A DNA stretch of 64,000 bases, from sequence record SRR31156797_3966; one strand, written 5' to 3'. The notes under the pieces were generated by a model that searched no databases, was not told where the DNA came from, and worked only from the letters and a program-made list of their open reading frames with translations. Positions 10,939-33,456 of this stretch are shown piece after piece. Every line of letters begins with the position of its first letter. Positions within the stretch are counted from its first letter, which is position 1. The position numbers and the translations under genes were made by a program.

Positions 10939-11931
10939 TTAGAACGAGTATTTAGCTACGAATTTGATAGAGTCAACTTCTTTACTTTGTTCACCTTGCT
11001 GATCGTACTCACCTGTTTGTACGACAAAGTCAGTTTTAAACTCTTTAGTTACGTCATAGCCTAAACCTAGATATGCTGTCTGTGCATCAAAGCTTGAACC
11101 TACATAGTCACCTTCTGCAAACTGAATCGAGCCGTAAATGCGGAATAGATCGATAGTGTAAGTCGCAGCTAGTGAGTATGTTTCACCATCGTTTGGTGTT
11201 TTGAGTTCTAGGTCATTACTTTCATTTAGTTTAAGTTTTTTACCGTCTTCAAACGAAATGAACGCTGCTGCCAGTTTTAAATCACCAATCTCAACGTCGC
11301 CCGCTACGCCGAACGATTCACCTTCACTACCATCAGAGTTATATGCAATAGCGGCAGAGAAGTTATCTGCTTTGTAGTTCGCTGAAACTGCGTAGTTGGA
11401 TTCGTAGTTTGTATCGCTATCTGTTTCGTAGTTAGCTGATAGCTCTAATTTCTCAGCTACCGTTTTCTTATAGCGAATACCTTGACCTTCCACGCCACCT
11501 TGGTCTACGAAGAATAAGTTTACACCTTCACCAGTTTTTGCTTTTTCTACTGCGCCGAATGAGTTGCCTGTATCACCTAGAGAAAGGTTACCAAAAATAG
11601 TGTGGTCAAACTCCAATTTGATATCAGCGAACTTAGCGTTCTTGTCTGTTGCACTATTGCCTGTATTGATCGCGAATGAGCCGATAACTTTAGCATCTTC
11701 ACTTAAAAAATGCGTTCCCTTTAGTTTAAGGTGAGCGTCAGTATAAACGTGTTCTTCTTGATCTTTATCTTTACCCTCTTTGTCTTTAAAGTCTGTATCT
11801 ACGTATGCACCAACTGCTTTTGCCCAACCAGAAAGTTCTACTGTGTTTGTGTCAGTTGCGTAGATTTCGCCAGCTGATACAGAACCTGCTGCTAGAAGAG
11901 ATACCACTGCTGCTAATGGCTTGATGTTCAT
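10939..11931 (-). CDS. Outer membrane porin (OmpU/OmpT-like Gram-negative porin)
   Basis: Signal peptide ..SVSA/GEIY, alternating beta-strand pattern, C-terminal YSF. Confidence 0.85.
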   Translation of the reverse strand: MNIKPLAAVVSLLAAGSVSAGEIYATDTNTVELSGWAKAVGAYVDTDFKDKEGKDKDQEEHVYTDAHLKLKGTHFLSEDAKVIGSFAINTGNSATDKNAKFADIKLEFDHTIFGNLSLGDTGNSFGAVEKAKTGEGVNLFFVDQGGVEGQGIRYKKTVAEKLELSANYETDSDTNYESNYAVSANYKADNFSAAIAYNSDGSEGESFGVAGDVEIGDLKLAAAFISFEDGKKLKLNESNDLELKTPNDGETYSLAATYTIDLFRIYGSIQFAEGDYVGSSFDAQTAYLGLGYDVTKEFKTDFVVQTGEYDQQGEQSKEVDSIKFVAKYSF

Positions 11932-12012
11932 ATTGTACTCCATTTTTTATATTAATTACTTAGATATGTAATTGTGTGTATAAATTTGCTTAACAACTCA
12001 ATGTATTTACAA

Positions 12013-12033
12013 AGGTGAAATAATTTTTCATTA
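12013..12033. promoter_or_regulatory. Putative KdgR box upstream of the porin
   Basis: AGGTGAAATAATTTTTCATTA; 1 mismatch to core TRAAAYRnYRTTTYA. Confidence 0.6.
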
Positions 12034-12475
12034 ATCAAATCGACACAGGGAATGTTATACAAAATAAGTTTTAAATATATTGAAAATTAATATTTGGAAT
12101 ATTTTTTACGATCTACTTCATAATGGGATTTGTTTTTTAATAATTTTATTAGGTAACAGGTTTCACTGCTCTTATACAATATGTAATATGTTATTTTTCT
12201 CAATTTAAAATATTGGTTCATTTATTAATGTATTTGAGGTGTGAGTCGCATTGTTGTGGTTTTTAGGGTTTACCTTTGATATTAATTGTCTTATTTGTGC
12301 GGAGATACTCCCCTCTAAGCCTTGCCTTACATGGTCTTGATGGTGTGTAACTGATTTTATAAAAACCTTACACATATCTTTTTCTTGTCTAATAGATATA
12401 TTAATTAAACCTGATCCCATTCCGTTTAATAACAAATTTAATCTGGATCGCAAAATGTAACGACAATTGCTGTTT

Positions 12476-12496
12476 TAGTAAAACATGGTTTCATTT
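12476..12496. promoter_or_regulatory. Putative KdgR box upstream of the sulP-galT-ugl-GH112 operon
   Basis: TAGTAAAACATGGTTTCATTT; 1 mismatch to core TRAAAYRnYRTTTYA. Confidence 0.65.
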
Positions 12497-12643
12497 TGTG
12501 TTGATGATGTTTCGTTGGTATTTATAATAAGGCTGGAATTGGCTCTTATTTCAGCTATTAGTTGAATGATTGCTCTAGTAATATATTTGCGACTTATTTC
12601 GCAAAAAAATAAATAACATGATGTACAGAATATAAGAGATTAT

Positions 12644-14281
12644 ATGAACTCGCAGATATTGGTCATTCTGGCTCGTTGGCTTCCTTTTTTAACTTGGTTA
12701 CCTAAGGTTACTCGTAATTCAATCAAAGCCGATTTTTCAGCAGGTTTAACCGGTGCATTTATTGTTATGCCGCAAGGAGTGGCTTACGCCATGATTGCCG
12801 GTTTACCACCTGAATATGGACTCTATACGGCTATTGTCCCTGCGATACTTGCTGCTTTGTTCGGTTCTTCCAAGCACCTTATCTCTGGCCCTACAGCCGC
12901 ATTGTCGGTCATTGTATTCAGTACGATTTCTCAGTTTGCCGACACTAATACGCCGTTATACATTCAACTCTGCTTAACGCTGACTTTTTGCGCCGGTATT
13001 GTTCAGCTCATCATGGGCGTATTAAGAGTCGGTGCCGTGGTGAATTTTGTATCACACTCAGTGGTTATGGGTTTTACCGCAGGAGCTGCTGTGGTGATCG
13101 CGGTGAGTCAGTTAAAGCATGTGCTAGGCTTGTCATTCGCTTCTGAAAATACCGCCGTCGATAACTTGTGGCTGGTCATCAGTCATTTGGGTGAGACTCA
13201 GTACTTTGCATTAATGACCGCAGTGGCAACCATTGCGGTTTGTGTGATAACCAAGCGTTGTTTCCCATCTTTACCCAATATGTTGATTGGCATGTTAGCG
13301 TCAGTGATGTTTGTGCTTGGGCTAAATTATTTAGGTGTCACTATTGATCGCGTGAGTCAGATTCATAGCGCGACCTTATCGATGTCTGCACCGATTATGA
13401 GCGTAGATACTGTGCGTGATTTGGCGGGTGGCATTGTGGCGGTGGCTCTGTTAGGTCTGGTTGAAGCCATTTCAATCGGTCGCGCGGTGGCACTTAAATC
13501 TAAACAGCGCATTAACAGCAATCAGGAGTTTATTGGGCAAGGTATCTCCAATATCGTCGGATCGTTTTTCTCCTGTTATATGTCTTCAGGCTCATTTACC
13601 CGCAGCGGTGTCAACTATAGCAGCGGCGCTCAAACCCCTTTAGCTGCGGTTTTCGCTGGTCTTATTTTGTTGGTGCTGATGCCTTTCGTTGCTGACTATG
13701 TGAGTTATATCCCTCTGGCAGGAATGGCCGGTATCTTGTTAGTGGTGGCATATAACTTGGTTGATGTTGCTCATATCCGTTCTGTTCTTCAACACGATCG
13801 TAAAGAGGCCGTGGTGTTAGTGGCCACCTTTATCGCTGCCATCGTTATGCATCTAGAGCTATCAATTTACGTGGGTGTGGCGGTATCGATGTTCTTTTAC
13901 CTGCGCCAGACCTCGCGTCCAACGGTAGATAAAATTGATGTTAGTGAACTGGATAAAGGCCACGTGGAATTGCCGGACACCCAGATTGTGCGTATTAACG
14001 GTTCGATTTTCTTTGGTTGCGTGGAACACCTACAGCAAGAACTGGAATCAATCCAAGCTAAGCGACTGATTATTTTGGGCCGTGGAGTCAATTTTATTGA
14101 CCACCTTGGCGTGCAGATGCTGGCAGAAATGATTGCTCATGGTAATCGAGAAATTGTGTTCTGCCGCTTTAAACACAAATCCAAGCAAGCCCTGATGCAA
14201 GGCATTCCTTGCATAGAAGAGCAACATTTTTCAGAGCACCTTACTCCATTGATAGAGAAGTGGGGAACCATTACCCGTTAA
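12644..14281 (+). CDS. SulP/SLC26 family anion (sulfate) transporter with STAS domain
   Basis: [47 protein letters not shown]-terminal STAS ([14 protein letters not shown]). Confidence 0.93.
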
Positions 14282-14361
14282 GCCTGAGCATTGGTTTGGG
14301 TTTGACTCAGCATTGTCGAATTTTCGTTATTTTTCGTTTTATAAAAGGATATCTGGTCACC

Positions 14362-15426
14362 ATGAATGAAAGCCAATTTGATGAAATTGAGCATCCGCAT
14401 CGTCGTTACAATCCGTTGTTAGGCGAATGGGTATTAGTTTCACCTCACCGAGCTAAGCGCCCGTGGAGTGGGCAACAAGAAACGCCAGCTCAGCCACTTG
14501 CGGTAAGCTATGACAAGTCGTGTTTCTTATGTGCGGGCAATCAGCGTATTAGCGGTGATGTTAACCCAAACTATACGGGTACATTTGTATTTAAGAATGA
14601 TTTTGCCGCATTAACAGACAATACGCCGAGTAAAGATTCTAGCGATGATCCTTTATTCAAGCTTCATAGTGCGAAAGGTGAAAGTCGCGTGATCTGTTAT
14701 TCACCCGATCACAGTCGTACTTTAGCGGAACTGTCGGAGCAAGAGATTGAGAAAGTCATTTCTACGTGGATTGATGAAACTAACAGCTTAAGTAAGCATT
14801 ATCCATGGGTTCAGATCTTTGAAAACAAGGGTGAAACCATGGGCTGTTCACAGCCGCACCCACATGGTCAAATTTGGGCTAACAGCTTTTTGCCAACGAT
14901 GGTCGCCAAGAAAGAACAGCACCAGCGAGAGTATTTCGAAAAACATAGCTCGCCACTTTTGTATGACTATGCTCAGCGCGAGTTATTGCGCCAAGAGCGC
15001 GTTGTGGTGGAAACCAAACACTGGGTAGTGGTTGTACCGTATTGGGCTGGGTGGCCATTTGAAACTTTGGTATTGCCAAAACAGCAAGTAAGCCGAATTA
15101 CGGAACTGAGTGAAGAGCAACAAGCCGATCTTGCCATTGCGCTTAAAGATATTACTACTCGTTATGACAACCTGTTCCAGTGCTCTTTCCCATATTGTAT
15201 GGGTTGGCATGGTGCGCCTTTCTCCCTAGAAGAGAATACCAGCGATGAACAGAGCCAGTACTGGCAAGTTCATGCTTCGTTTTTCCCTCCTCTGCTACGC
15301 AGCGCCACTGTTCGAAAGTTTATGGTGGGCTACGAGATGCTTGCGGAATCTCAACGAGATTTAACGCCAGAACAAGCTGCGGAAAGGCTGCGTTCATTAA
15401 GCAATATTCATTATCGTCAAAATTAA
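14362..15426 (+). CDS. galT: Galactose-1-phosphate uridylyltransferase
   Basis: [21 protein letters not shown], catalytic [22 protein letters not shown]; start moved to ATG 14362. Confidence 0.96.
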
Positions 15427-15473
15427 GGTCAGTAGACCAATTATCCTATTCCATTTGTTGAAGAGAGCCTGCT

Positions 15474-16643
15474 ATGACAGAAACTATTTCGCTTCGTCCA
15501 TTACCCCACGTACTGGATGAGCAGAGAGTTGTTAACCACCTGACAACTGTGGTTGAATCGATTCGTCGCAATATCCCTAAAATTGGTGAACGTAACCCCA
15601 AAATTGGTACCAGTGGTCACGCTTGGGACTACTGTGAACAGTTTGACTGGGTATCGTCATTTTGGACCGGTGAGCTTTGGTTAAGCTACCAGATGACTGG
15701 TCAGGAAGTATTTAAAAATAGCGCTAAGTTACGTAAAAACTACTTTGCTGCAATGTTACTGGACCCTTTCTGGTTAGATCATGATTTGGGTTTCCAATAC
15801 AGCCTAAGCTGTGTTGCAGACTACAAACTAACGGGCGATGAAGAATCAAAAATGATGGCACTTCGCGCGGCGGACCATCTGATTCACCGCTTTAGAAAAA
15901 TCGGCGGTTACATTGTTGCGTGGAACGATACGCATCCACTTGGCCCTGAAGTGACATTAGGTAAATCAATCATTGATTCACTTCAAAATACTGCGCTTCT
16001 GTTTTGGGCTTCAGAAATCACCGGATCTCCAGTGTATGCCGATGCGGCAAAACGCCATAGCGAAACACTGGCTAAGCACATTGTGCGTGATGATTTCTCA
16101 ACGTATCACTCGTTTAACTTTGACCCAATTACTCAACAACCGCTGAAAGGCGAAACCTTTCAAGGTTACGCCGATGAGTCTTGTTGGGCTCGTGGTCAAT
16201 CGTGGGCGGTTCACGGTTTTGCGCAAACTTATCTATACACCGGTGATGAGAAGTTCCTGACTTTGGCCAAGAAACTGGCTAAATATGCCACTGACCATAT
16301 CACAGATGATGGTGTGCCAGTTTGGGATTACTTACTGCCTAGCGATGAAATTCAATACAAAGACAGTTCTGCAGGCGCAATCACTGCGGCTGGCTTACTG
16401 CTTATTGCTCAATGCATTGAAGATGCTGACGAAGCGAAAATGTACCGTGATTGGGGCTTATACCTGCTGCAAGGTCTGATTAAAGAGTGTGATTTAACGG
16501 ATAACGAAAGTGCGTTGGGTCTGCTAGCGAACGGTGCTTCTTTTGTTAAAGTCGGCTTATGCGACAACATGCTTCCATATGGCGATTACTACTATCTAGA
16601 AGCGTTAATGCGTGCCAACGGTTATCAGAAGTTCTTCTGGTAA
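15474..16643 (+). CDS. ugl: GH88 unsaturated glucuronyl hydrolase, no signal peptide
   Basis: WVSSFWTGELW, DHDLGFQY, IIDSLQN, QGYADESCWARGQSW, DSSAGAI, YGDYYYLEAL. Confidence 0.92.
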   Translation: MTETISLRPLPHVLDEQRVVNHLTTVVESIRRNIPKIGERNPKIGTSGHAWDYCEQFDWVSSFWTGELWLSYQMTGQEVFKNSAKLRKNYFAAMLLDPFWLDHDLGFQYSLSCVADYKLTGDEESKMMALRAADHLIHRFRKIGGYIVAWNDTHPLGPEVTLGKSIIDSLQNTALLFWASEITGSPVYADAAKRHSETLAKHIVRDDFSTYHSFNFDPITQQPLKGETFQGYADESCWARGQSWAVHGFAQTYLYTGDEKFLTLAKKLAKYATDHITDDGVPVWDYLLPSDEIQYKDSSAGAITAAGLLLIAQCIEDADEAKMYRDWGLYLLQGLIKECDLTDNESALGLLANGASFVKVGLCDNMLPYGDYYYLEALMRANGYQKFFW

Positions 16644-16703
16644 TGCTTTTTCTAAAGCGGGCAGGTATTTCTGCTCGCTAATTTTATTGTTTGGAGTTTG
16701 AAC

Positions 16704-18890
16704 ATGAATCAGGTTTCTTCAACCAAAGGGCATATGACTTTGCCTGTAGAGGTTGGGCAAGAAGAAGTGGTATTAGATTTATACCAACGTTGGCAAGCGG
16801 ACGCACTTCGCGATAGTGACGGGACGACGATGCCGGAGTCTTTAGCACAACAAGACGGCGATATTTACTCGGTGATGTGTCTCGTACGTGCTGACCAAAA
16901 GTTTGCTAACGAACACCCAGAGTACCTACACCGTAAGTACCTAATGTCTTTCCCTGTGACCGCGATGGATGACAGTTTGGTTATTCTGCCGCTTGATGGC
17001 TACAGCAAAGATAAGTATGAGCTGGATGACGACAGTGACCCGAAAGCGTGGTGGGAAGTGCGTAACCGTACAACCAATGCTGTAGTAGATGCGTCGCTGT
17101 GGGATTTTGATGCTGCGACTCAGCAAGTCACAATCAAGCAAACTCAGCCTTACCATGAGTACACAGTGACTTTCATGGCACGTCAGGTGTGGGACAGTGT
17201 CTCCATGTACAACGCACTGACTAACGACTGGAAAGGTCCACGTATTAAGAGCTTGGATCCTTACCACCCAGAATGTCGTGCACACTTAATTAAGCACTTT
17301 GCACAATGGTTACAAGATCACCCGAACACAACCGTAGTACGCTTTACTACGTTCGCATTCCTGTTCGTGATTGATACTGGCGAGCAAAACCAAGATATCT
17401 ACCGCGACTGGACGGGGTATGGTGAAACGGTTAGCCCGCGTGCGCTAGAAGATTTTGAAAAACGTTTTGGTTACCGTTTATCTCCGGAAGACTTCGTCGA
17501 TGCAGGCTACTATAACGGTACGTATAAGCCACCAACAAAACGTTACCAAGATTGGATGACCTTTGTTCAAGAGTTTGTGGTTGATTTTGCGGCGGAACTG
17601 GTTGCTATGGCGCATGACGCAGGCAAGAAAACCGCGATGTTCCAAGGCGATCACTGGATTGGTACAGAACCGTTCCTGGAAAGTTATCAGCAGATTGGCT
17701 TGGATATCAACATCGGTGCGGTGGAAGATGGTGTTGCACTGCGTCGCCTGACGGATTCTATGGGTGACCAAACTCGCGAAGCGCGTTTCTATCCTTACTT
17801 CTTCCCAGATGTGTTCCGTGAAGGTAACGATCCTGTGGTTGAGTCAATGTCGAACTGGGTGAAAATCCGTCGTGCGATGTTACAAAAACCTCTCGACCGA
17901 ATCGGTTACGGTGGCTATTTATCTCTGGCAAACAAGTTTCCTCACTTCATTGACCATGTGACTGATATTTCACGTGAATTTGGTGAGTATCTAGACAACA
18001 CCCAAGGGACTGAATCACAAAAGCTACCCGGCAAAATAGCGGTATTGAGTGCTTGGGGTAAAGCGCGCAGTTGGTTGCAAAACCAAGCTCGTGACCAACG
18101 CTTCTATGTTCCGCCTCGTCCAGATGTGATGGAGTTTGTCGGTAACAACTTGCTTGAGTGTTTGGCGGGTCTACCATTCGACGTCGAGTTCATTAGCTTT
18201 GATGACATCATCAATCACGGTATCAGTGATGATATTAAAGTGATCATCAACACTGGTGATGCAAACTCGGCTTGGAGTGGTGGTGAGTGTTGGGATAACA
18301 GTGAAGTGCTGGTTGCATTGCGTAAGTTTGTGGGTCAGGGTGGCGGTTTACTTGGTGTCAGTGACCCATCAGCACTGCAAAAGAATGGCCGTTACTTCCA
18401 GTTAGGCGATGTTTTTGGTCTGGAGAAAGAGACAGCATTGACCATGGGGCGTGTTGCTATGCCTCTCTCAATTGCAAAAGATCACTACTTGAGCCAGTTT
18501 GTGACTCAAGAGCTGGATTTTGGTAATCCGAGTTATGTCTATCCACAAGCTCAGGATCTGACGGTTCTTGCGGCTCAAGGTCAACACTTAGCGTTAACAG
18601 CACGTAATTACGGTCAGGGTCGTTCGGTTTACATGGGTAACCTGCCATTCAACGTGAAGAATGCGCGTTTGCTGCAACAAGTGCTGATTTGGCTTGGCAG
18701 CAATGAAACGGCGCAACATGCATGGTTGTCGGAATCGCCAAATGTTGACGTGGCTTACTATCCACAGACGGGTAAGGCGACAGCGGTAAACTACTCGAGT
18801 GAGCCTCAGCAATTGACGGTATGCAACTCTAACGGCGAATCCGTTGACATCAACCTAAAAGGTTATGAGTGGAAGTGGCTTGCTAACTAA
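16704..18890 (+). CDS. GH112 beta-galactoside phosphorylase (lacto-N-biose/galacto-N-biose phosphorylase family); acceptor uncertain
   Basis: ADALRDSDGT, WD.VSMYN.LTN.W, VVRFTTF, GDHWIGTEP (catalytic Asp), RFYPYFFPDVF, DRIGYGGY; ATG at 16704 follows GGAG. Confidence 0.92.
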   Translation: MNQVSSTKGHMTLPVEVGQEEVVLDLYQRWQADALRDSDGTTMPESLAQQDGDIYSVMCLVRADQKFANEHPEYLHRKYLMSFPVTAMDDSLVILPLDGYSKDKYELDDDSDPKAWWEVRNRTTNAVVDASLWDFDAATQQVTIKQTQPYHEYTVTFMARQVWDSVSMYNALTNDWKGPRIKSLDPYHPECRAHLIKHFAQWLQDHPNTTVVRFTTFAFLFVIDTGEQNQDIYRDWTGYGETVSPRALEDFEKRFGYRLSPEDFVDAGYYNGTYKPPTKRYQDWMTFVQEFVVDFAAELVAMAHDAGKKTAMFQGDHWIGTEPFLESYQQIGLDINIGAVEDGVALRRLTDSMGDQTREARFYPYFFPDVFREGNDPVVESMSNWVKIRRAMLQKPLDRIGYGGYLSLANKFPHFIDHVTDISREFGEYLDNTQGTESQKLPGKIAVLSAWGKARSWLQNQARDQRFYVPPRPDVMEFVGNNLLECLAGLPFDVEFISFDDIINHGISDDIKVIINTGDANSAWSGGECWDNSEVLVALRKFVGQGGGLLGVSDPSALQKNGRYFQLGDVFGLEKETALTMGRVAMPLSIAKDHYLSQFVTQELDFGNPSYVYPQAQDLTVLAAQGQHLALTARNYGQGRSVYMGNLPFNVKNARLLQQVLIWLGSNETAQHAWLSESPNVDVAYYPQTGKATAVNYSSEPQQLTVCNSNGESVDINLKGYEWKWLAN

Positions 18891-18913: not shown

Positions 18914-18941
18914 AAAAGGTGCACTGCGGTGCACCTTTTTT
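18914..18941. terminator. Intrinsic terminator, likely bidirectional
   Basis: AAAAGGTGCAC-TGCG-GTGCACCTTTTTT. Confidence 0.88.
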
Positions 18942-19051: not shown

Positions 19052-20515
19052 TTAGCGCGTTTTTTGTTTTTCAATCGACTCATCGAGCAGTTTTTGCATT
19101 TGCGCGACTTTTTCTGGCATTGAATCCGCTAGATTGTTGAGCTGACCGACATCATCAAACAAATCGTACAGTTGTGCTGTCGACTGATTGCCTTTTTCGT
19201 TACCTGTGTACTGGCAGATGAAGTCATCATCATGAGGAGGGATATAGGCGTAACGTCCATCACGGAACACTTTTTTATACTGCATGCCTTCCAACACCAT
19301 AGTGCTGCGGCCTGTAGGGTCTTGACCAATCAAAGCATTCAGCTGAAGTTCACTATCGGGTGCTTCATTTTCATCCAGTTCGTAACCAATGAGTTTCGCT
19401 AAACTATGGTACAAATCGACCTGATTGATTAATGCATTGCTGTGCTGTTCGCTAATGGTATGAGGCCAACGCACGATGAATGGAACGCGCGTGCCTCCTT
19501 CAAACAGGCTGTATTTACCACCACGTAATGGACCTGCCATTTTGTGTTCGCCGTTGAGTTCAATTGCTTGATCTTTATAGCCATCGTTCAGCACGGGGCC
19601 ATTGTCACTGGAGAAGATGACGATGGTGTTCTCTTTCAGACCAAGTTGCTCAAGTTTGTCGAGAACTTTACCGATACACCAGTCCATTTCTACAATGACG
19701 TCGCCACGAACACCGTGTGGTGTTGCCCCTCTAAATTTCGGGTTTGGAATGCGTGGTACGTGTGGTTGATGCATGGCGTAGTAAAGGAAAAACGGCGTGT
19801 TTTGGTTTTGCTCGATGAAATCAATCGCTTTATCGGCAAAGCGTTCGCCCATGGTTTCATCATTCCAAATGGCTGACTCACCACCACGCATGTGACCAAT
19901 GCGGCTAACGCCATTGATGATGGTGCCATCGTGACCATGATCGTACATGACATCTAACAACTCAGGGTTGTTGCGACCATTCGGCACATCACTAAACGCT
20001 TTGTCCCAGTCATAAGTCACTTCAATTGGGTTTGTTGGGTCTAGGTTTTCAACGTTACGGTTATCGATGTAAACACAAGGGACACGGTCATTCGTTGCAG
20101 CCATGATAAACGACTGATCGAAGCCAACATCATTCGGTGTACCAGAGATGGTTTTATTGAAGTCCAGATTACCGTCACCCAACCCCAGATGCCATTTACC
20201 GACAATACCTGTGTTGTAACCTTGTTTTTTGAACATTTTTGGCAGGGTTGGTTGTTCCTTACTAATAATTTGTGGCGCATCACCCGGTAGTACAGCGGCG
20301 TCCGGATTTCTCCACGGATAGCTACCCGTCAATAAGCTGTAACGTGAGGGCGTACAAGTTGCTGCTGTGGCGTACCCTTGGTGAAACTTGATCCCTTCTT
20401 CAGCAAGTTTGTCTAAGTTAGGGGTTGGAATATCGTTCGCGCCGTAACAGCTAAGGTCGCCGAAACCTAAGTCGTCGGCATACAGAATGATGACATTAGG
20501 GTGTGAATTGTTCAT
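19052..20515 (-). CDS. Cys-type formylglycine sulfatase, resembles S1_15 Gal/GalNAc-6-O-sulfatases; no signal peptide
   Basis: ADDLG, CTPSR, GKWHLG, AATNDRVPCVYI, RIGHMRGG, PHVPR, SDNG, GGKY; subfamily from recalled motif similarity. Confidence 0.85.
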   Translation of the reverse strand: MNNSHPNVIILYADDLGFGDLSCYGANDIPTPNLDKLAEEGIKFHQGYATAATCTPSRYSLLTGSYPWRNPDAAVLPGDAPQIISKEQPTLPKMFKKQGYNTGIVGKWHLGLGDGNLDFNKTISGTPNDVGFDQSFIMAATNDRVPCVYIDNRNVENLDPTNPIEVTYDWDKAFSDVPNGRNNPELLDVMYDHGHDGTIINGVSRIGHMRGGESAIWNDETMGERFADKAIDFIEQNQNTPFFLYYAMHQPHVPRIPNPKFRGATPHGVRGDVIVEMDWCIGKVLDKLEQLGLKENTIVIFSSDNGPVLNDGYKDQAIELNGEHKMAGPLRGGKYSLFEGGTRVPFIVRWPHTISEQHSNALINQVDLYHSLAKLIGYELDENEAPDSELQLNALIGQDPTGRSTMVLEGMQYKKVFRDGRYAYIPPHDDDFICQYTGNEKGNQSTAQLYDLFDDVGQLNNLADSMPEKVAQMQKLLDESIEKQKTR

Positions 20516-25348: not shown

Positions 25349-25399
25349 GTACAGGGCGATTAAATCATTGAAACATTAGAACATCTTATGGAGTTAACT

Positions 25400-27319
25400 A
25401 TGACAACACATAATAAGATACCTCTGTTCGGAAAGACGGCAATTGCGGTTGCAGCAGCAATGTCTTTCTCAAGCTGGGCAAATACTTATAACGAAGCGCC
25501 ACAGCTAGCAGAGCTAGTTAAAGCAGGCAAACTGCCAAGCGTTGAAGAGCGTTTACCGGTCAACCCTTTGGTTGTTGAACCAAACGAGTCTATCGGTCAA
25601 TACGGCGGTACGCTCAACCTCGTGGGTAAAGCGATGGACAACGGTCACCGTATCCGTACTGTGGCGTATGACAACCTGTTTAACTTCGATACGACATACT
25701 CAAAAGTCATTCCAAACTTGGCGACTGGCTTCGAATCTAACGCAGAAAACACCGAGTTTACTATTAGCCTACGTAAAGGCGTGAAATGGTCTGATGGTAC
25801 GCCGTTTACGGCTGACGATGTGGCTTTCTATATCAACGAAATCGTTGGTGACCCAGAGCATTCAGGCAACCGTCCGCTAGTACTGCCAGCACATGACTCA
25901 GCAAAAGCTTCAGTGGTAGATGAGCACACAGTAAAAATTACCCTAGCTAAGCCAAACGGTATGTTTATTCGTAGCCTAGCAACGGTTGATAGTGAAAGCT
26001 TTACCGCTTTCCCGAAACATTACTGCTCTCAATTTATGCCTAAGTTTAATGACAAGGCAGTAGAAAACGCGAAAGCGGCAGGTTTTGACTCATGGCGTCA
26101 ATATGCTTCTACCAAGTGTGAAGCGCATTACTTCCTTGAGCACCACAACAACGTTGATCGCCCTGTACTAACCGCATGGAAAGTGGCAACACCTCCTGGA
26201 CCAAACGCAACTTACGCGGTTTATGAGCGTAACCCATACTACTGGCAGGTGGATACAGAAGGGAACCAGTTACCATACCTGGATTCTGTTCGCTGGCGTT
26301 ACAGTGAAGATATGGAAGAGATGGTTCTGCGTGCGGCAAATGGCGAAACGGATTACCAACACCGTAATGTAGGTCAGACAACTTACCGTTCGCTATTAAT
26401 TGAGAACGAAAAGAAAGGTAACTTCACCTATAAGTTCCGTCCTAGCACGTTAAGCACCGAAGTTGCACTTCCTCTGAACCAAACTTCAAAAGATCCGTTG
26501 AAACGTGAACTGTTTGCAAACAAAGACTTCCGTATTGCACTGTCTCACGCTATCGATCGCTCTGAAATCAGCGAAACGGTTTTCTCAGGTGTGGTAGAAG
26601 GTTATCAGGCGGTACCGCTAGAAATTTCTCCTTACTATGATCAGGAAGCCGCAGAGCAGTACATTGAGTTTGATCCGAAGAAAGCCAACAAAATGCTTGA
26701 TGATTTGGGCCTGACTCAGCGTGATAAAGAGGGCTACCGTCTGCTTAAGAATGGTGAGCGTCTGCGTATTGAAGCGCTGTCTGAAACACGCAGAAAAGGT
26801 GTGTTTGCCGATACTCTAGAGCTGGTTAAGAACCAGTGGAAAGATGTTGGTATCTTCCTAGATATCCGTATTTTGGAATCGAACCACATTATCAACCTTC
26901 GTCTAACCAACGACTTCGACATGATTCCGAACATCGGTGAAGGTGGTGTTGGTGTGATTGATGAATCTCGTTACTACTTCCCGTTCAGCCCTGAATCAAC
27001 TTGGGGTATGGGTTACTACCTATGGGCTAACGAGCCAACAAACGAGTTTGCTGTAGAACCACCAGCGCACGTGAAACGTCAGCTAGAACTTTGGAAAAAA
27101 GTGACAGAAACGTCTTCTCAAGAAGAGCAGCAAAAATACATGAAGGAAATCCTAGCGATCAGTAAGGAGCACTTCTACGTAATCGGTACTGTTGAAGCGA
27201 TGCCTGCAGGTGTTGTTGTGAACAATGACCTTCACAACACACCTGAAAACATGCCTCAATCTTGGAACTTCCCAACTCCAGGACCAATGCGCATGAGCCA
27301 GCTTTGGAAAAGCCAATAA
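25400..27319 (+). CDS. ABC transporter substrate-binding protein, family 5 (DppA/OppA-like; oligosaccharide-binding subgroup likely)
   Basis: Signal peptide; EAP.LAELV..GKLP.VEERLP, LRKGVKWSDG.PFTADDV, RNPYYW.VD.EGNQLPYLD; ATG at 25400 follows GGAG. Confidence 0.92.
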   Translation: MTTHNKIPLFGKTAIAVAAAMSFSSWANTYNEAPQLAELVKAGKLPSVEERLPVNPLVVEPNESIGQYGGTLNLVGKAMDNGHRIRTVAYDNLFNFDTTYSKVIPNLATGFESNAENTEFTISLRKGVKWSDGTPFTADDVAFYINEIVGDPEHSGNRPLVLPAHDSAKASVVDEHTVKITLAKPNGMFIRSLATVDSESFTAFPKHYCSQFMPKFNDKAVENAKAAGFDSWRQYASTKCEAHYFLEHHNNVDRPVLTAWKVATPPGPNATYAVYERNPYYWQVDTEGNQLPYLDSVRWRYSEDMEEMVLRAANGETDYQHRNVGQTTYRSLLIENEKKGNFTYKFRPSTLSTEVALPLNQTSKDPLKRELFANKDFRIALSHAIDRSEISETVFSGVVEGYQAVPLEISPYYDQEAAEQYIEFDPKKANKMLDDLGLTQRDKEGYRLLKNGERLRIEALSETRRKGVFADTLELVKNQWKDVGIFLDIRILESNHIINLRLTNDFDMIPNIGEGGVGVIDESRYYFPFSPESTWGMGYYLWANEPTNEFAVEPPAHVKRQLELWKKVTETSSQEEQQKYMKEILAISKEHFYVIGTVEAMPAGVVVNNDLHNTPENMPQSWNFPTPGPMRMSQLWKSQ

Positions 27320-27361: not shown

Positions 27362-27500
27362 TTTGTATGCCTTTTTTCGGTAATTATTAAATTTATCAGT
27401 GTTTTATAGGCGCTTTGTTTTTAAGCCTAAAACGAGCTTAACGCATGATTAAACACTGATTAGTAAGTAATAGTTTGATGTCACTATTTAAGGAACAGTA

Positions 27501-28508
27501 ATGAACAGTTTTTTTCTGTTTGCAGGTAAGCGGTTGGTGTCGATTCTCGTCACTCTGTTTGCCGTTTCAATTGTCGTGTTCGCTGTTATTGATCTTCCTC
27601 CTGGTGATTTTGCCTCTGCAAAAATCGCAGAGCTTCAATCAATGGGGCAAACAGTTGATCCTCAGATGATTTTCACGTTACGTGAAATGTACGGTTTGGA
27701 TAAGCCCCTATGGGAACGCTACCTTAACTGGATTGCAGGTCTAATGGTCGGTGATTTAGGTATCTCTCTCACAACCAACCAACCTGTTTGGGACACCATT
27801 GAACCACGTATTTGGCCAACCATCTCGCTAGCAGCGGCAGTATTTATTTTCCAATTTTTGATTGCTATTCCAATTGGTATGTACTCAGCGTTGCGCCAGT
27901 ATTCGTGGGGCGATTACATCGCGACTATCTTCGGTTTCATTGGTATGGCAACACCCAACTTCGTTATTGCGATTGTGGCTTTGCTGGTTGGTTACTACAG
28001 CTTTGATACCGTTGTGTCTGGTCTCTATTCTGATGAATATTTAGGTCAACCTATGTCTTGGGCTAAGTTCTTAGATGCGGCTTCGCGCAGCTGGATTTAT
28101 ATCGTGGTCGTGGGTACTGCGGGGATGGCCGGTATCATCCGAATCATGCGGGCTAACCTGCTGGATGAGCTTAAAAAGCCTTACGTGAAGACTGCGCGAG
28201 CGAAAGGCCAGTCAGAGTCTAAACTGATTCTGAAATATCCTGTTCGTATTGCGATTTTACCTATTGTTTCGACTATCGGTTGGATGCTTCCTGCTTTGCT
28301 GGGTGCAGACATCATTGTTAGTCAGGTAATGAACATTCCTACCCTTGGTCCTTTGATGTTAGCAGCACTTCGTGCTCAAGATATGTACGTAGCAGGTGAT
28401 GTTCTGCTGATCATGTCGATTCTTACCATTATCGGTACCTTAATTTCCGATCTTCTTTTGTACTGGATTGACCCTCGAGTACGTGTTGGTGTCGCGAAGG
28501 AGTTTTAA
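27501..28508 (+). CDS. ABC transporter permease (DppB/OppB-like)
   Basis: LPPGD, YGLDKP..ERY..W, GDLG.S, R.MRANLLDEL..YV.TARAKG, DP RVR terminus. Confidence 0.93.
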   Translation: MNSFFLFAGKRLVSILVTLFAVSIVVFAVIDLPPGDFASAKIAELQSMGQTVDPQMIFTLREMYGLDKPLWERYLNWIAGLMVGDLGISLTTNQPVWDTIEPRIWPTISLAAAVFIFQFLIAIPIGMYSALRQYSWGDYIATIFGFIGMATPNFVIAIVALLVGYYSFDTVVSGLYSDEYLGQPMSWAKFLDAASRSWIYIVVVGTAGMAGIIRIMRANLLDELKKPYVKTARAKGQSESKLILKYPVRIAILPIVSTIGWMLPALLGADIIVSQVMNIPTLGPLMLAALRAQDMYVAGDVLLIMSILTIIGTLISDLLLYWIDPRVRVGVAKEF

Positions 28509-28510
28509 TT

Positions 28511-29671
28511 ATGAACACGACGACTATTCGTTCTTTCGGGCAGCTATTTACCCGTCGTAAAAAAACGTTGGACTTAAGTACGGCGACTCAGTGGCAACTG
28601 ATCGGCATGAAAATGCGTCAGCACAAACTGGCTTGGTATAGCTTAAAGTTTCTATTAATTGTGTATGTTATCGCTGCGTTAGCGGAGTTCTTCGCTCCTT
28701 TTGATCCGAGTGATAACTGGAGACGTTATACTTACGCTCCACCTCAGTCAGTTAGCTTGTTTGAAAGTACAGACGACGGTTGGCGTTGGGCCCCTCATCT
28801 AGAGTTCTACAAGAGTACAACCGATAAGCGCACCTTAAAGAGGCATTATGAGCTAGATCCAAACACAAAAGTTTACTTTGAGTTCTTTGGTAAAACGGAA
28901 TCTTATGAGCTAATGGGATTTATCCCAATGAGCTATAAGTTCATCGTCCCAGAAAATCCAAAGCAGCCATTCTTCATTTTGGGTTCAGACCGTATGGGGC
29001 GAGATATGTTGTCTCGTCTGATTTACGGTGCTCGCATTTCGCTATCTGTAGGCTTAATGGGTGTATTCACTACCTTTGTGTTAGGTATCGTTATTGGTGG
29101 TATTTCGGGCTACTTTGGCGGCGCAGTCGATAACCTCATTCAACGTACGATTGAGTTTATCAAATCCATCCCAACCCTTCCTCTGTGGATGGCTCTGTCA
29201 GCGTCACTGCCGGCGGAGTGGAGCTCACTGACGAAGTACTTCTTAATCACTATCATCTTAGGTCTTGTTTCATGGCCAGATATGGCTCGAGTCGTACGTA
29301 GTCGCTTTATGTCACTGCGTGGTGAAGAATACGTAGCCGCAGCGTGGTTGGATGGCAACAGCCCGTTTGAGATCATCCGTCGTTACATGGTTCCTAACTT
29401 CCTCAGCCATATTATCGCGGTGGTGACACTGGCGATTCCGATGATGATTCTGGGTGAAACGGCGCTAAGTTTCCTAGGTCTTGGCCTACAGGCTCCAATG
29501 GTGAGCTGGGGTGTTCTATTGCAAGAAGCGCAAAACATCCGAGCGTTGGCTGAAGCTTCTTGGCTACTGATTCCTGCTGTAGCTGTTGTAATTGTTATTC
29601 TCGCGATGAACTTCGTTGGTGATGGTCTACGTGATGCTTGTGACCCATACCATGATCAGGGAGCAAAATAA
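28511..29671 (+). CDS. ABC transporter permease (DppC/OppC-like)
   Basis: LGSDRMGRD..SRLIYGARISL, ETALSFLGLG, NFVGDGLRDA.DP. Confidence 0.93.
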   Translation: MNTTTIRSFGQLFTRRKKTLDLSTATQWQLIGMKMRQHKLAWYSLKFLLIVYVIAALAEFFAPFDPSDNWRRYTYAPPQSVSLFESTDDGWRWAPHLEFYKSTTDKRTLKRHYELDPNTKVYFEFFGKTESYELMGFIPMSYKFIVPENPKQPFFILGSDRMGRDMLSRLIYGARISLSVGLMGVFTTFVLGIVIGGISGYFGGAVDNLIQRTIEFIKSIPTLPLWMALSASLPAEWSSLTKYFLITIILGLVSWPDMARVVRSRFMSLRGEEYVAAAWLDGNSPFEIIRRYMVPNFLSHIIAVVTLAIPMMILGETALSFLGLGLQAPMVSWGVLLQEAQNIRALAEASWLLIPAVAVVIVILAMNFVGDGLRDACDPYHDQGAK

Positions 29672-31365
29672 TGAGCGAAAAAATTCTACAAGTTAAAAAT
29701 CTCAATGTGAGCTTCCCAACCAGCATGGAGCATTTCCATGCGGTTAAGAATGTGTCATTTGATTTGTACCGGGGTGAGACGCTGTCTGTTATCGGTGAAT
29801 CAGGCTCGGGTAAGTCGGTCACCTCTTCTGCCATTATGCAGCTTCTGGATAAACCTGGACGTATTGATACCGGTGAAATTCTGTATACCACGGAAACAGG
29901 CGACATCTTTGATATTGCGAAGATTGATCCTCGTAGCCGCCAAATGCGCTCAATTCGTTGTTTTAACTTCTCTCTGGTATCACAGGAGCCGATGGCTGCA
30001 TTAAGCCCTGTACATACGGTTGGTGATCAGATTAAAGAAGTACTGTGTCTGGTTGACCCGAGTCTGGGTAAGCAACAAGCGCACGCCAGAGCAGTCGAAC
30101 TGCTTGAGCAAGTTCAAATGCCAGAGCCTGCGAGCCTGATCAATAAGTACTCATTTGAGCTGTCTGGTGGGCAACGTCAACGTGTGGTGATTGCAATGGC
30201 TATTGCGTCGCGTCCAGACGTATTGATTGCTGATGAGCCTACCACGGCGTTGGATGTGACCACTCAGGCGGAAATCTTAGACCTGTTTAAAAAACTGCAG
30301 CAAGAGATTGGTATGGCGATTCTGTTTATCACTCACGATTTAGGTGTTGTGGCTCAGATTTCTGACCGCGTAGTGGTAATGGAAAAAGGTGTTTTGGTGG
30401 AATGTGGTGATGTTCGCCAGATTTTCGAAAGACCAGATCACCCATACACTAAGAAGCTGATGGAAGCGACTCGAGCGCTGGAAAAACCTTCAAAAGTGAA
30501 AGTGCCGTATCAACTGGAAGAGGGCAGCAAGGTTAAGCCTATCTTAGACTTGCAAGCGGTGACGAAAGTCTTCCACAAGCCGGCGAAAATGTTCGAGAAA
30601 AAGAGCACCATGACGGCGGTTGATAATGCCAACTTGACACTTTATCCAGGCGAATCATTGGGTATTGTTGGAGAATCAGGTTCAGGTAAAAGTACGTTAG
30701 GCCGTGCAATTCTTGGTATGTCTCCAGCAACATCAGGCAGCATTCAGTACGTTGACGTGAAAGGCAACGTTGAAATCGAGTTATCAAACTATAAACGTCC
30801 GGTACGCGATCCTCTGTTCGCTGACTTACGCCTGATTTTCCAAGACCCATGGTCATCGTTAAACCCGCGTATGACTGTATTCGATATCATCGAAGAACCT
30901 CTGTTGAAGCTGCGCACTGAGATGAACAAGACGGCTAGGGAGGAGCGCGTTCGTAACATCATGAAATGGGTTGGGTTACCACCACAATTTTCAAGTCGTT
31001 ACCCACATGCGTTCTCTGGTGGTCAGCGTCAGCGCATCGTAATTGCTCGCGCTCTGGTTACTATCCCTAAGGTTGTGATCGCAGATGAAGCAACCGCCGC
31101 GCTGGATGTTTCGTTACGCTCGCAAGTTTTGGATTTGTTGATTGAGTTCCAAAACACCTATGGTACTGCTTTCATCTTGATTACTCACGATATTGCAACG
31201 GTTAAGTACTTCTGTGACCGGGTGCTAGTACTACAACACGGGAAAATCGTCGAGCAAGGCTCAGTGGATAAAGTCATTTATCACCCAGAGCAAGCCTATA
31301 CACGAGAGCTGATATCAGCGGTTCCAGTTGCAGAGCTACCGCCGGAAACTTCCAATGTAGCTTAA
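29671..31365 (+). CDS. ABC transporter ATPase, fused DppD/DppF-like double domain
   Basis: Two Walker A GESGSGKS, two SGGQRQR signatures, DEPTTALD and DEATAALD. Confidence 0.94.
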   Translation: MSEKILQVKNLNVSFPTSMEHFHAVKNVSFDLYRGETLSVIGESGSGKSVTSSAIMQLLDKPGRIDTGEILYTTETGDIFDIAKIDPRSRQMRSIRCFNFSLVSQEPMAALSPVHTVGDQIKEVLCLVDPSLGKQQAHARAVELLEQVQMPEPASLINKYSFELSGGQRQRVVIAMAIASRPDVLIADEPTTALDVTTQAEILDLFKKLQQEIGMAILFITHDLGVVAQISDRVVVMEKGVLVECGDVRQIFERPDHPYTKKLMEATRALEKPSKVKVPYQLEEGSKVKPILDLQAVTKVFHKPAKMFEKKSTMTAVDNANLTLYPGESLGIVGESGSGKSTLGRAILGMSPATSGSIQYVDVKGNVEIELSNYKRPVRDPLFADLRLIFQDPWSSLNPRMTVFDIIEEPLLKLRTEMNKTAREERVRNIMKWVGLPPQFSSRYPHAFSGGQRQRIVIARALVTIPKVVIADEATAALDVSLRSQVLDLLIEFQNTYGTAFILITHDIATVKYFCDRVLVLQHGKIVEQGSVDKVIYHPEQAYTRELISAVPVAELPPETSNVA

Positions 31366-31370
31366 CCCTC

Positions 31371-31403
31371 AAAGCCCTATCGTCATGCTGTCGATAGGGC
31401 TTT
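31371..31403 (+). terminator. Intrinsic terminator of the ABC operon
   Basis: AAAGCCCTATCG-N9-CGATAGGGCTTT. Confidence 0.75.
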
Positions 31404-31468
31404 ATACCCAAGTGACTTTATGAATAAGCAACACTCACACAGAAATGTATTGAGGTTATTTGGGTATA
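31403..31468. repeat. ERIC-like/MITE-like element, 66 bp, internally shortened
   Basis: Imperfect terminal inverted repeats TATACCCAAGTGACTTTA ... TGAGGTTATTTGGGTATA with TA ends. Confidence 0.65.
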
Positions 31469-31485
31469 CATAACGGAGGTGTAGA

Positions 31486-33456
31486 ATGAACATTTGGCAT
31501 CGAATGTCTATCATTAGCAGGTTTTATTTGGTGACGAGTTTTTTGCTGGTTGCAGTAGCCGCGACCGGCGGCATTGCTTACTGGCAGAGCCAAAAGTTAA
31601 CCGACCAACTTGACTATATTGGCAAAAGCTCGATGGAGGAGCTCGGCCGATTATCAATCATCGAAAAAGAGCTGGTGGAACTAGAAACTGACATTGCTCA
31701 TTTTGATAAAGAAACGTGGCGCGAAATCAGCAGTCATGTCCCTGAGCATGTGCATTTTTCAAAAAAAGAAGTACAAGAAATCAATGCACTGCATAGTGAT
31801 TTTGATTTTAAGTGGATAATCCCAGACTCTTTTGACACTGATTTCCAGCAACTGACAGAGATAATGGAAGGTCATGATCAACTGAGCTTGCAGCATCAGA
31901 AACGTGTTCAAAAATACCGTTTGCTATCATTACAGGTTAAGCGCTTTATCTATGTGTTTAGTGCGACTGAAAATGATATGAATAGTGCAATGATGGCAGA
32001 AAACGTGGCTGGTCGTTTGGATTCATTGATCTTTAACACGGACAAAGCTTTGGATTCTGATTCGATTGATGAAGTTAAAGAGCTGCTCGCCAAAAACCAA
32101 TCCATCAAAGCTGAAACCTCTGCTATGGTCGAAAACTTAGCGTCTCGAAGCAAACGAATGACCAAACGCAACATTAATCAGATTGAATCACTACTGTCAC
32201 TGTCGATTGATAATGGTGGCGTGGTAGATATGCATTCCCAACATCTTACCCTGACTTCTGAAGAGAAACGCATCACTTCCACTTTATCTAACTATGTGAG
32301 AAATCAAATTGACGAACTTGAAGCATTTCGTGATGTGATGATTATGGACGCGAAAAACAAGGTGTTTGAGGCAAAAGAGAGTCAAACCCGTTATATGTTG
32401 CAGTTGGCAGTGTTTGTTTTAGCCGCAGGCTTTGTCTCGGTTTGTTTAGTATTAGCGACATCCAATAACATTAAAAATGGCTTGAAAGCACTCAGCTCGG
32501 TGTTGAATGCGATGTCTAATCGCGATCTCACCGAACAAGCGACGTATAGCCGAAGCCAAGAATTGTCTTGGTTGGGTAAGCATGTGGAATCGGTCCGGGA
32601 TCAACAGTGTGATTTGTTGAGCCAACTGAAAGTTTCCGCGCACAAGCTTAATGAAGTGGTTGAGCATAACAGCTCTTTGATGGTTGATACTCAAAACTCA
32701 GTTCAAGAGAACGTTGAGTTAACCGACGATATCTCCGCACTGACACTAGAAATGGAAGGGGTGATTAATCACGTTGCTGAACAGGCGAAAGTCACCACGC
32801 AAAGAATGGAAATTGCGGTAACTGAGTCGCAAAAAGGCTACGAACACATCAAGTTGAACGATGAATGCATCAGTGCGACATCTCAGCTACTGGATAAAGC
32901 GGTTTCAACCATTGATCACTTGGTGAACGACGCTAAATCGATCGAGTCGGCTCTAGCGATGATTGAGGAAATTGCAGACCAAACTAACTTACTGGCACTT
33001 AACGCTGCGATTGAAGCGGCTCGGGCAGGGCAGTATGGACGTGGATTTGCGGTGGTTGCTGATGAAGTTAGGCAACTCGCAACTAACACAACACAGTCTA
33101 CTAGCGGGATACTGTCGAATATCCAATCGCTGCAGAATAGTGTTTCGGAGTCGGTAGAATTGATTCAGCAGTGTAAATCGAGTATCAATGAAGCGACGCG
33201 CAGTTCACAGATATCCTATGACGCAGTGAAAGAAGTGAAAACGTGTATTGATACTGCTGCGGAAATGTCACAAACCATATCGGTTGCGACGGCTCAGCAG
33301 TTGACGACCAGTCATGAGATGGTCGAAAAGTTGAATGCAGTAAAAGACAACGTTCAAAGCAATGCGTCGACAGTACACACTTTGTCGCGGAGCGTTAACC
33401 AGATCAAACAAGTATCGTCGCAACAAGGTGAACTTGTAGAGGGTTATGTGATCTAA
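31486..33456 (+). CDS. Methyl-accepting chemotaxis protein
   Basis: Two TM segments flanking a ~270 aa periplasmic domain, HAMP-like region, [32 protein letters not shown]. Confidence 0.95.

Follow-up and report, generated by a model that had tools for sequence, protein, structure and literature searches.

A Vibrionaceae locus predicted to import chondroitin-sulfate and hyaluronan fragments and to finish their breakdown in the cytoplasm

Which sulfated, uronate-capped sugars are dismantled by the enzymes encoded at positions 10939-33456 of a 64,000-nt stretch of DNA (sequence record SRR31156797_3966; hereinafter the window)? The original prediction, made from the letters alone, proposed a candidate undescribed pathway for such galactosides, possibly the proteoglycan linker HexA-Gal-Gal-Xyl, in which Gal is galactose. 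Genes were identified from the list of open reading frames (ORFs) and by Pfam and NCBIfam profile searches, for which window ORFs of at least 110 aa were scanned for families. Each gene named in that prediction was recovered at its place: a porin, a SulP-family transporter, GalT, GH88, GH112, two sulfatases, the sulfatase-maturing enzyme anSME, a DUF2264 protein, an ABC importer, and a methyl-accepting chemotaxis protein (MCP). Family memberships, catalytic residues, synteny, co-occurrence, and a conserved operator were established directly, and we consider it probable that the locus represents one half of the chondroitin-sulfate/hyaluronan utilisation island of Vibrionaceae, the half for uptake and for finishing in the cytoplasm.

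The two sulfatases are encoded on the minus strand, and their subfamilies, assigned by nearest solved relatives, agreed with those given earlier. The S1_15-type protein (19052-20515), predicted to act on 6-O-sulfate of N-acetylgalactosamine (GalNAc) or Gal, matched 7ozc, 7oze, 9bas, and 6s20 with E-values of 1e-150 to 1e-156; its best solved relatives include 9bas/9bau ("S1_15A/B") and the GalNAc-6-O-sulfatase of Bacteroides thetaiotaomicron (6s20). The S1_27-type protein (20515-21993), a putative chondroitin 4-O-sulfatase, was closest to 6s21 ("endo-4-O-sulfatase"; E 5.7e-173), and the family that followed among the solved structures scored far lower. The translations contained Cys-type sulfatase motifs (C54-T-P-S-R58 in S1_15 and C63-S-P-H-R67 in S1_27). 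The radical-SAM enzyme anSME (22165-23370, plus strand) scored 480 bits with TIGR03942, whose cut-off is 349, and carried the CxxxCxxC motif as CNLDCDYC. The catalytic domains of both sulfatases begin at residues 2-5, and the proteins therefore have no signal peptide. Signal peptides were judged by eye from N-termini and from the start points of alignments to solved structures; they were seen in the porin and in the family-5 periplasmic solute-binding protein (SBP), and none was seen in GH88, GH112, either sulfatase, or the DUF2264 protein. The earlier description of the enzymes as lacking signal peptides was thus borne out, and that of cytoplasmic enzymes acting on imported, sulfated, uronate-capped sugars is supported.

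GH88, predicted to be a cytoplasmic unsaturated glucuronyl hydrolase (15474-16643, plus strand), gave a Pfam match of only 31.6 bits. This weak score is misleading, given the matches to solved structures: residues 31-382 aligned with the Bacillus unsaturated glucuronyl hydrolase 1vd5 (E 7.8e-71), and the streptococcal enzymes of this type matched at E 1.6e-61. Both catalytic aspartates had counterparts: D104 aligned with the residue altered in the D88N entries, and D168 with D149 of the Bacillus enzyme.

The DUF2264 gene (23627-25348, plus strand) encodes a two-domain protein with DUF2264 (PF10022; score 289 bits, cut-off 25) and DUF2264_C (PF20938). The original prediction held that proteins of this family, GH154, remove glucuronic acid (GlcA) from Gal, a view that is out of date. 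According to a 2025 report, a B. caccae enzyme of GH154 does not act as a hydrolase and dehydrates the non-reducing-end beta-GlcA of chondrosine to its 4,5-unsaturated form, which GH88 afterwards removes; the family founder, BT3677, carries out the same dehydration on methyl-beta-glucuronide and none on chondrosine, and genes of the family often accompany GH88 or GH105 (PMC12269599). Alanine mutants of the B. caccae glucuronate dehydratase (BcGDH) at E74, R78, N176, N177, W178, F181, Y229, R285, Y289, and Y354 were inactive, and Y229, R285, and Y289 were proposed as catalytic residues (PMC12269599). The match of the window protein to BcGDH (9o4u) was weak (E 4.5e-22); eight of these ten active-site residues (N176, N177, W178, F181, Y229, R285, Y289, and Y354) were kept in the alignment, in which the motifs NNWYWF, MDYYN, GRSLNY, and FYTSS were found. 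The alignment does not reach E74 and R78; the window protein has E60-x3-R64. The gene is co-oriented with the importer and lies 40 bp from the SBP gene, and its product is therefore read as enabling GH88 to act on saturated GlcA caps. It would be a beta-D-glucuronate 4,5-dehydratase that turns these caps into GH88 substrates, rather than a hydrolase of GlcA from Gal. Saturated GlcA caps occur at the original chain ends and on the products of animal hyaluronidases.

The surroundings of 36 loci encoding GH112 relatives were compared, with neighbours counted within 10 kb; Pfam annotation covered L004, L012, L014, L016, L019, L022, and L027, L023 was added later, L020 was left out, and L030-L036 were not annotated. 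In 27 of the 36, from Vibrio, Photobacterium, Enterovibrio, and Vibrionaceae records, a GH88 gene whose product is 73-97% identical lay directly 5' of GH112. Among those 27 loci, GalT was found in 22 and S1_15, S1_27, and anSME in 11 each, and SulP was kept upstream of GalT in 21. The full form of the island was found in V. hepatarius and V. mimicus, with the order KduI, KdgK, Eda, SulP, GalE, GalT, KduD, GH88, GH112, one or two PL8 genes (one with CBM96), S1_15, S1_27, and anSME in V. hepatarius. PL8 directly followed GH112 in L004, L012, L014, and L019, with KduI, KdgK, Eda, and KduD nearby. The PL8 proteins encoded next to GH112 in V. floridensis (L004:12256-14307) and V. hepatarius (L014:12244-14259) are 671-683 aa long and have no signal peptide; unlike the PL8-CBM96 enzymes, they are probably cytoplasmic oligosaccharide lyases.

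Some of the related loci show features of their own. Photobacterium-type and Enterovibrio-type loci encode an extra sulfatase between GH88 and GH112 (L016:8445-10004), for which the best solved relative reached only E 1.6e-39 and the comparison with solved structures yielded no hint on the GH112 substrate. The S1_27 orthologue at G015:C1:2191657-2193153 has an internal TAA, and the island DUF2264 gene at G074:C127:11754-12772 is split into two frames of 445 and 169 aa; a decaying copy or a sequencing error may explain each of them.

The locus also has a counterpart in genomic island XII of V. vulnificus CMCP6 (VV2_1090-1111). COG4289 is presumably the same as DUF2264, as its position also suggests. 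As published, island XII contains two hypothetical genes (VV2_1091 and VV2_1092), KduD, GalT, GalE, SulP, an MCP (VV2_1099), a dipeptide-type ABC system, a COG4289 protein (VV2_1105) adjoining the ABC genes and the MCP, three arylsulfatases, and an "arylsulfatase regulator", and VV2_1098 and VV2_1110 encode chondroitinases according to its authors (PMC3091676). Common to both are GH112 (VV2_1091), GalT (1094), SulP (1096), the MCP (1099), the ABC importer (1100-1104), a hypothetical gene at the GH88 position (1092), the COG4289 protein (1105), and the arylsulfatases with anSME (1106-1109). Genes of island XII with no counterpart in the window are those for the two chondroitinases, GalE, KduD, and one of the sulfatases, and a Porin_4 porin stands in place of an OprD-type porin. 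The gene order also differs: SulP-GalT-GH88-GH112, sulfatases, anSME, and DUF2264-ABC-MCP follow one another in the window, next to KdgR and a pectin cluster, and the order in the sister-species locus L004 is SulP-GalE-GalT-KduD-GH88-GH112-PL8. From this comparison, the window locus is a lyase-less variant of island XII that has also lost GalE, KduD, and a sulfatase. The pathway originally called undescribed therefore has the gene set of a known island, which is described with chondroitinases (PMC3091676), and PL8 adjoins GH112 in other vibrios.

Co-occurrence was examined in a sample of 301 Vibrionaceae genomes, with a threshold of E <= 1e-30 for GH88 homologues. GH112 was present in 18 genomes, PL8 in 76, a GH88 homologue in 45, and DUF2264 in 82. 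All 18 GH112 genomes also carried PL8, a GH88 homologue, and DUF2264, and 13 of them an S1_27 orthologue (57-71% identity). Of these 18, 16 had GH88 and eight had a PL8 match no more than 2 kb from GH112, and in 15 DUF2264 shared the contig at a distance of at most 25 kb. The hypergeometric probability of full nesting was 3e-12 for PL8, a value that overstates independence since the genomes are related. The synteny check across Vibrionaceae suggested in the original prediction thus came out in its favour, as the genes are co-conserved both in the compared loci and in the genome sample.

The original prediction had also stated that the window holds no lyase, and had argued from this absence. 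The statement stands for glycosaminoglycan (GAG) lyases, as no Lyase_8 (PL8) was seen among the window ORFs scanned, but not for lyases in general, since the adjacent pectin cluster encodes two, the PL22 oligogalacturonate lyase at 35160-36326 and the PL2 pectate lyase at 45973-47685. The argument itself fails because all three of the nearest genomes carry PL8 at other sites. V. plantisponsor, for example, encodes an isolated PL8-CBM96 lipoprotein of 961 aa that shares 40-43% identity with the PL8 proteins linked to the island. KduI was also present in all three. A different type of locus recurs in genomes such as G030, G041, and G064, where about 20 kb encode PL8 (some 800-820 aa), a DUF2264 protein of reduced length (some 500-540 aa), and a sulfatase resembling S1_27 at only 39-43% identity, with no GH112 and with no GH88 at E <= 1e-30 when the window GH88 was the query. 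This type is apparently the commoner one in the sample, although uncounted, and a dehydratase without a detectable GH88 is odd.

The island genes also share an operator. The sequence TGAAAC-N3-GTTTCA, which we take to be the KdgR-box consensus, was found with at most one mismatch four times in the window against 0.45 expected, in all four cases in intergenic positions. One copy, TAAAACATGGTTTCA (12479-12493), lies about 150 bp 5' of SulP and abuts the best sigma-70-like match (12501-12528), and a second copy is found in the pectin cluster, in the gap separating KdgM from the Tog-like transporter. Across the 713 kb of the 36 related loci, 40 boxes were counted against 1.6 in shuffles. A box was located 153-165 bp 5' of SulP in L001-L003 (153-270 bp when L006-L008, L010, and L020 are included), about 127 bp 5' of GH88 in L010, L012, L013, L016, and L021, about 70 bp past GalT and ahead of KduD in L014, L015, and L024, and in the S1_27-anSME gap in L014, L024, and L026. 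Next to the locus, an IclR-family KdgR is encoded (33768-34562, plus strand; NF011671 score 432 bits, cut-off 275), which is the likely regulator acting at the boxes. Given the conserved boxes and the neighbouring KdgR equivalog, the island may belong to a regulon responsive to 2-keto-3-deoxygluconate (KDG). The sharing of a conserved operator ahead of the operons fits the original prediction.

Two further boxes with one mismatch each (51334-51348 and 51563-51577) are flanked by YgjV (50578-51102, minus strand) and by a CBS/DUF294 nucleotidyltransferase and exonuclease pair (51669-54256). Promoter and terminator scans gave 29 matches against 34.7 in shuffles and 24 against 18.2, respectively; neither was enriched, and both were used for site description only. 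An Rfam search over the whole window gave no matches. RNA libraries contained 6-7% of the sampled window words, which derive from relatives at about 89% identity. In a seawater RNA library, a single contig of such a relative spans 15391-17239 and thereby joins the 3' end of GalT, the whole of GH88, and 540 bases at the start of GH112; it is proof neither of one common transcript nor of expression in the organism of the window.

Genes for uptake frame the locus. The outer-membrane porin (10939-11943, minus strand; Porin_4, PF13609, E 1.3e-21) has counterparts of 69-74% identity that occupy the corresponding position in L001-L003 and L011, and an OprD-type porin replaces it in other vibrios. The SulP-family anion transporter (12644-14281, plus strand; PF00916, E 5.7e-94) scored 357 bits with TIGR00815, below the cut-off of 380, and would presumably export the sulfate freed in the cytoplasm. 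The family-5 SBP (25388-27319; PF00496) is followed by two ABC permeases and a fused double ATPase (27501-31365; Pfam and NCBIfam) and by the MCP (31486-33456; PF00015), all on the plus strand. The nearest solved relative of the SBP was SPH1118 (E 8e-108), described as a pectin/oligouronate binder that serves both uptake and chemotaxis. By analogy, this likeness fits an oligo-uronate ligand and a link between SBP and MCP, which may be partners, but it does not give the identity of the ligand.

A complete-looking pectin/oligogalacturonide cluster (33768-50084) directly follows the locus. It comprises KdgR, a small helix-turn-helix ORF, the PL22 enzyme Ogl, an SSF transporter, a pectinesterase, a KdgM porin, the Tog-like ABC importer, the periplasmic PL2, MatE, and an esterase. 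KdgF was not found, and the 115-aa ORF beside KdgR (34745-35092) gave no cupin match and a helix-turn-helix match below threshold. On the other side, about 8 kb upstream of the locus, an arginine decarboxylase and an arginase-family (agmatinase-like) gene are located (181-3030); the same pair directly precedes the V. mimicus island (L019:6-1724), and the chromosomal neighbourhood may therefore be shared.

With a pectin cluster next door, KdgR-like boxes common to both, an SBP resembling a pectin binder, and a DUF2264 relative, BT3677, from an arabinogalactan locus, the target might be sought in an algal or plant polymer, such as a sulfated glucuronogalactan or an ulvan-like or arabinogalactan-type polysaccharide, instead of an animal GAG. 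We give this explanation hardly any credence. The sulfatases are nearest to GalNAc-4S and GalNAc/Gal-6S enzymes of host-glycan loci, the lyases that accompany the island elsewhere are PL8-CBM96 enzymes and chondroitinases, and genes for GH105, rhamnosidase, and galactanase are lacking.

Among characterised systems, the chondroitin loci of Bacteroides (B. thetaiotaomicron BT3333/BT3349 sulfatases with GH88; B. caccae PUL25 with PL35, GH88, GDH, and GH109) share with the window the S1_15 (E 1e-150) and S1_27 (E 6e-173) types of sulfatase, and both pair GH88 with a "GH154" glucuronate dehydratase (PMC12269599). The enzymes are cytoplasmic in the window and periplasmic in Bacteroides, uptake relies on a porin and an ABC importer instead of SusC/D, and the weakly matching window DUF2264 (E 4.5e-22) has an extra C-terminal domain compared with BcGDH. 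GH112 and GalT are present in the window and not in the Bacteroides loci as described. In the hyaluronan locus of V. alginolyticus LWW-9, PL8 lyases, GH88, and KDG-pathway genes also form one cluster, but uptake there depends on a phosphotransferase system and sulfatases are missing; the words "phosphorylase" and "galactose" do not occur in that paper (PMC8222515). Literature searches found no stated role for the GH112-GalT module in the Vibrio island.

This module is what a chondroitin-sulfate island leaves to be explained. GH112 (16698-18890, plus strand; likely start 16704) scored 1209 bits with TIGR02336 (cut-off 560), the profile of beta-1,3-galactosyl-N-acetylhexosamine (lacto-N-biose type) phosphorylases, and has the three-domain architecture PF09508, PF17385, and PF17386. 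It matched the Bifidobacterium longum phosphorylase GLNBP at E 2e-175, and D318 (QGDHWIGTEP) aligned with the catalytic D313 of GLNBP (LGDQWIGTEP). An ungapped alignment with the V. vulnificus cluster representative P0018 showed 596 identical residues of 728 (82%). The V. vulnificus enzyme, reported in 2008, is said to take only N-acetylglucosamine (GlcNAc) and GalNAc as acceptors, with an about 60-fold preference for lacto-N-biose/GlcNAc. A review table lists VV2_1091 of CMCP6 as a characterised lacto-N-biose phosphorylase with galactose 1-phosphate (Gal-1-P) and GlcNAc (PMC8950772).

More distant relatives of GH112 occur in other settings. In Parasalinivibrio latis (L023), a GH112 67% identical to that of the window belongs to a stand-alone operon that also encodes a DeoR regulator, a sugar kinase of the ROK family, and a MalK-type ABC importer with its family-1 SBP; unlike in the window, no GH88 was found within 10 kb, nor was a sulfatase or DUF2264. 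In two planctomycete loci (L022 and L027), GH112 is 69-70% identical and lies beside GH123-like genes and LacI regulators; these copies are closer than some from Vibrionaceae, which suggests transfer between phyla. By analogy, the ROK-kinase operon and the GH123 context point to an N-acetylhexosamine (HexNAc) aglycone. Together with the 82% identity to the V. vulnificus protein, the 67% relative in the ROK-kinase operon argues for Gal-beta-1,3-HexNAc as the predicted substrate rather than the Gal-Gal of the linker. The original prediction had named Gal-beta-1,3-HexNAc as an alternative, and this fits GH112 better than its first choice.

GalT is a paralogue of the Escherichia coli type (UDP-glucose--hexose-1-phosphate uridylyltransferase; NF008724, 587 bits against a cut-off of 448). 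Its ORF spans 14209-15426 on the plus strand, but homology begins at residue 55, and Met52 (14362) is the likely start, giving a gene at 14362-15426. GH112 together with GalT points to Gal-1-P as an output, in support of the original proposal. Two hairpins appeared in the consensus scan: one of 10 bp with a weak T tail in the GH88-GH112 gap (16656-16679, plus strand), a possible attenuator, and a bidirectional terminator-like one between the convergent GH112 and S1_15 genes (18914-18939).

In the linker pathway of the original prediction, lyase-released stubs (delta-HexA/GlcA-Gal-Gal-Xyl) would be dismantled and GH112 would phosphorolyse Gal-beta-1,3-Gal. The linker is, to our knowledge, the only known structure of chondroitin proteoglycans with a uronate directly on Gal, and such a substrate would bind PL8, GH88, and GH112 together. 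The signal-less PL8 by GH112 in L004 and L014 could trim imported linker oligosaccharides, and the nearest solved relative of GH88 is the Bacillus enzyme, which is reportedly tolerant of different aglycones. However, the V. vulnificus protein is 82% identical and the CMCP6 enzyme is listed with a GlcNAc acceptor, and close relatives of GH112 are found in HexNAc contexts, with a ROK kinase or with GH123-like genes. No gene for beta-galactosidase, cleavage of Gal-beta-1,4-Xyl, xylosidase, or xylose metabolism was seen in the window or in L004, L012, L014, L016, L019, L022, and L027. The linker also amounts to a few percent of the chain mass, and its stub is bound to peptide. We regard this pathway as very unlikely; it is unsupported and partly contradicted.

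A uronate-capped beta-1,3-galactoside ending in HexNAc, such as GlcA-beta-1,3-Gal-beta-1,3-GalNAc/GlcNAc, would keep the known Gal-beta-1,3-HexNAc substrate of GH112. It could be dismantled serially by DUF2264, GH88, GH112, and GalT, with the sulfatases clearing 4- and 6-sulfates and with no need for a lyase. Glucuronylated core-1 or type-1 chains of this kind are known from arthropods and other invertebrates. Such a route would suit the adjacency of GH88 and GH112 in all 27 island loci and in 16 of the 18 genomes, the presence of DUF2264 in every GH112 genome, the absence of a GAG lyase from the window, and a DUF2264 built like BT3677, which comes from a GlcA-Gal context. Against it, PL8 lies beside GH112 in many relatives and these glycans are no lyase substrates, no enzyme of the locus would free such oligosaccharides from protein or lipid, and the S1_27 relatives characterised to date act on GalNAc-4S of chondroitin. 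As an account of the whole locus it is unlikely. A broader claim is put forward tentatively, with a small but real chance of being right: the GH88-GH112 pair with GalT/GalE and DUF2264 under one KDG-responsive operator may constitute an undescribed step, in which a uronate is uncapped and the exposed galactoside is phosphorolysed, the substrate being the linker or glucuronylated Gal-beta-1,3-HexNAc of marine animals.

The module might instead serve HexNAc salvage, like the bifidobacterial route for lacto-N-biose and galacto-N-biose, the uridylyltransferase and epimerase moving GalNAc-derived sugar phosphates to the GlcNAc series. Such a conversion would be needed because these vibrios lack the Aga pathway: in the three nearest genomes (G001-G003), no AgaS-type GalNAc pathway gene scored above the cut-off, and the only weak AgaS match was to a protein of 617 aa that is probably GlmS. 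In most relatives the island includes paralogues of GalE and GalT, and the lnpABCD pathway of B. longum, with a GH112 that yields Gal-1-P beside a uridylyltransferase, provides the analogy. Unlike that pathway, the window has neither an N-acetylhexosamine 1-kinase nor a family-1 lacto-N-biose-binding protein, its GalT is of the E. coli type, and the module sits inside a uronate regulon. The kinase was seen in no scanned locus, HexNAc-1-P is not a product of GH112, and GalE is absent from the window. We therefore hold salvage of this kind to be extremely improbable. As the original prediction had reported, no HexNAc kinase, GalNAc catabolic gene, or GalK was found among the window ORFs scanned.

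Several observations weigh against the chondroitin-sulfate/hyaluronan reading. The window is without a GAG lyase, a cytoplasmic PL8, GalE, and KduI/KduD, and with no hexosaminidase only disaccharides could be finished. The fate of GalNAc is not accounted for by an AgaS-type pathway in the nearest genomes. The DUF2264 protein shares its two-domain architecture with BT3677, the member inactive on chondrosine, and the SBP that should bind the imported fragments has an oligogalacturonide binder as its nearest solved relative, in a locus that abuts a pectin cluster. The hairpin found in the consensus scan separates GH88 from GH112, and the co-occurrence counts were made on related genomes and do not amount to independent events. 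Finally, neither the window nor the related loci encode an enzyme that would set lacto-N-biose or galacto-N-biose free from a glycan, and a model in which GH112 has an independent substrate thus fails to explain its bond to GH88 and PL8.

The chondroitin-sulfate/hyaluronan reading nevertheless remains our preferred one, and from it we infer the following scheme, including all substrates, the direction of SulP, the link to KdgR, and the source of the GH112 substrate. A secreted PL8-CBM96 lyase, encoded elsewhere in this lineage, or host hydrolases would cut the polymer outside the cell. The fragments would pass the porin, bind to the family-5 SBP, which perhaps signals to the MCP, and enter by the ABC transporter. 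In the cytoplasm, S1_27 would take the 4-O-sulfate and S1_15 the 6-O-sulfate off GalNAc, both activated by anSME, with SulP disposing of the sulfate. GH88 would split the unsaturated uronate from HexNAc, and the DUF2264 dehydratase would make saturated GlcA caps unsaturated, so that GH88 could remove these too. The uronate would be converted by KduI and KduD to KDG, which would lift KdgR repression at the TGAAAC-N3-GTTTCA boxes. GH112 would phosphorolyse Gal-beta-1,3-HexNAc to HexNAc and Gal-1-P, and the latter would pass to the presumably co-transcribed GalT. Three enzymes may in this way serve three caps (delta-UA, GlcA, and Gal) on one beta-1,3-HexNAc aglycone.

Most of the chemistry of the locus is ordinary catabolism of chondroitin-sulfate and hyaluronan fragments, and its genes belong together. 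The locus shows a way in which a free-living Vibrio could live on such fragments, with desulfation and uncapping all placed in the cytoplasm and with a recently recognised glucuronate dehydratase standing in for a glucuronidase. Among strains of V. vulnificus, the same island is correlated with clinical origin. The question that remains is narrow: why a lacto-N-biose-type phosphorylase and Leloir enzymes stay in the island of every GH112-bearing Vibrionaceae genome sampled. If a uronate is indeed uncapped before phosphorolysis, this would be the first bacterial route for uronate-capped galactosides. The answer would reveal either a new substrate, the linker or glucuronylated galactosides, or a general importer of beta-1,3-HexNAc disaccharides.

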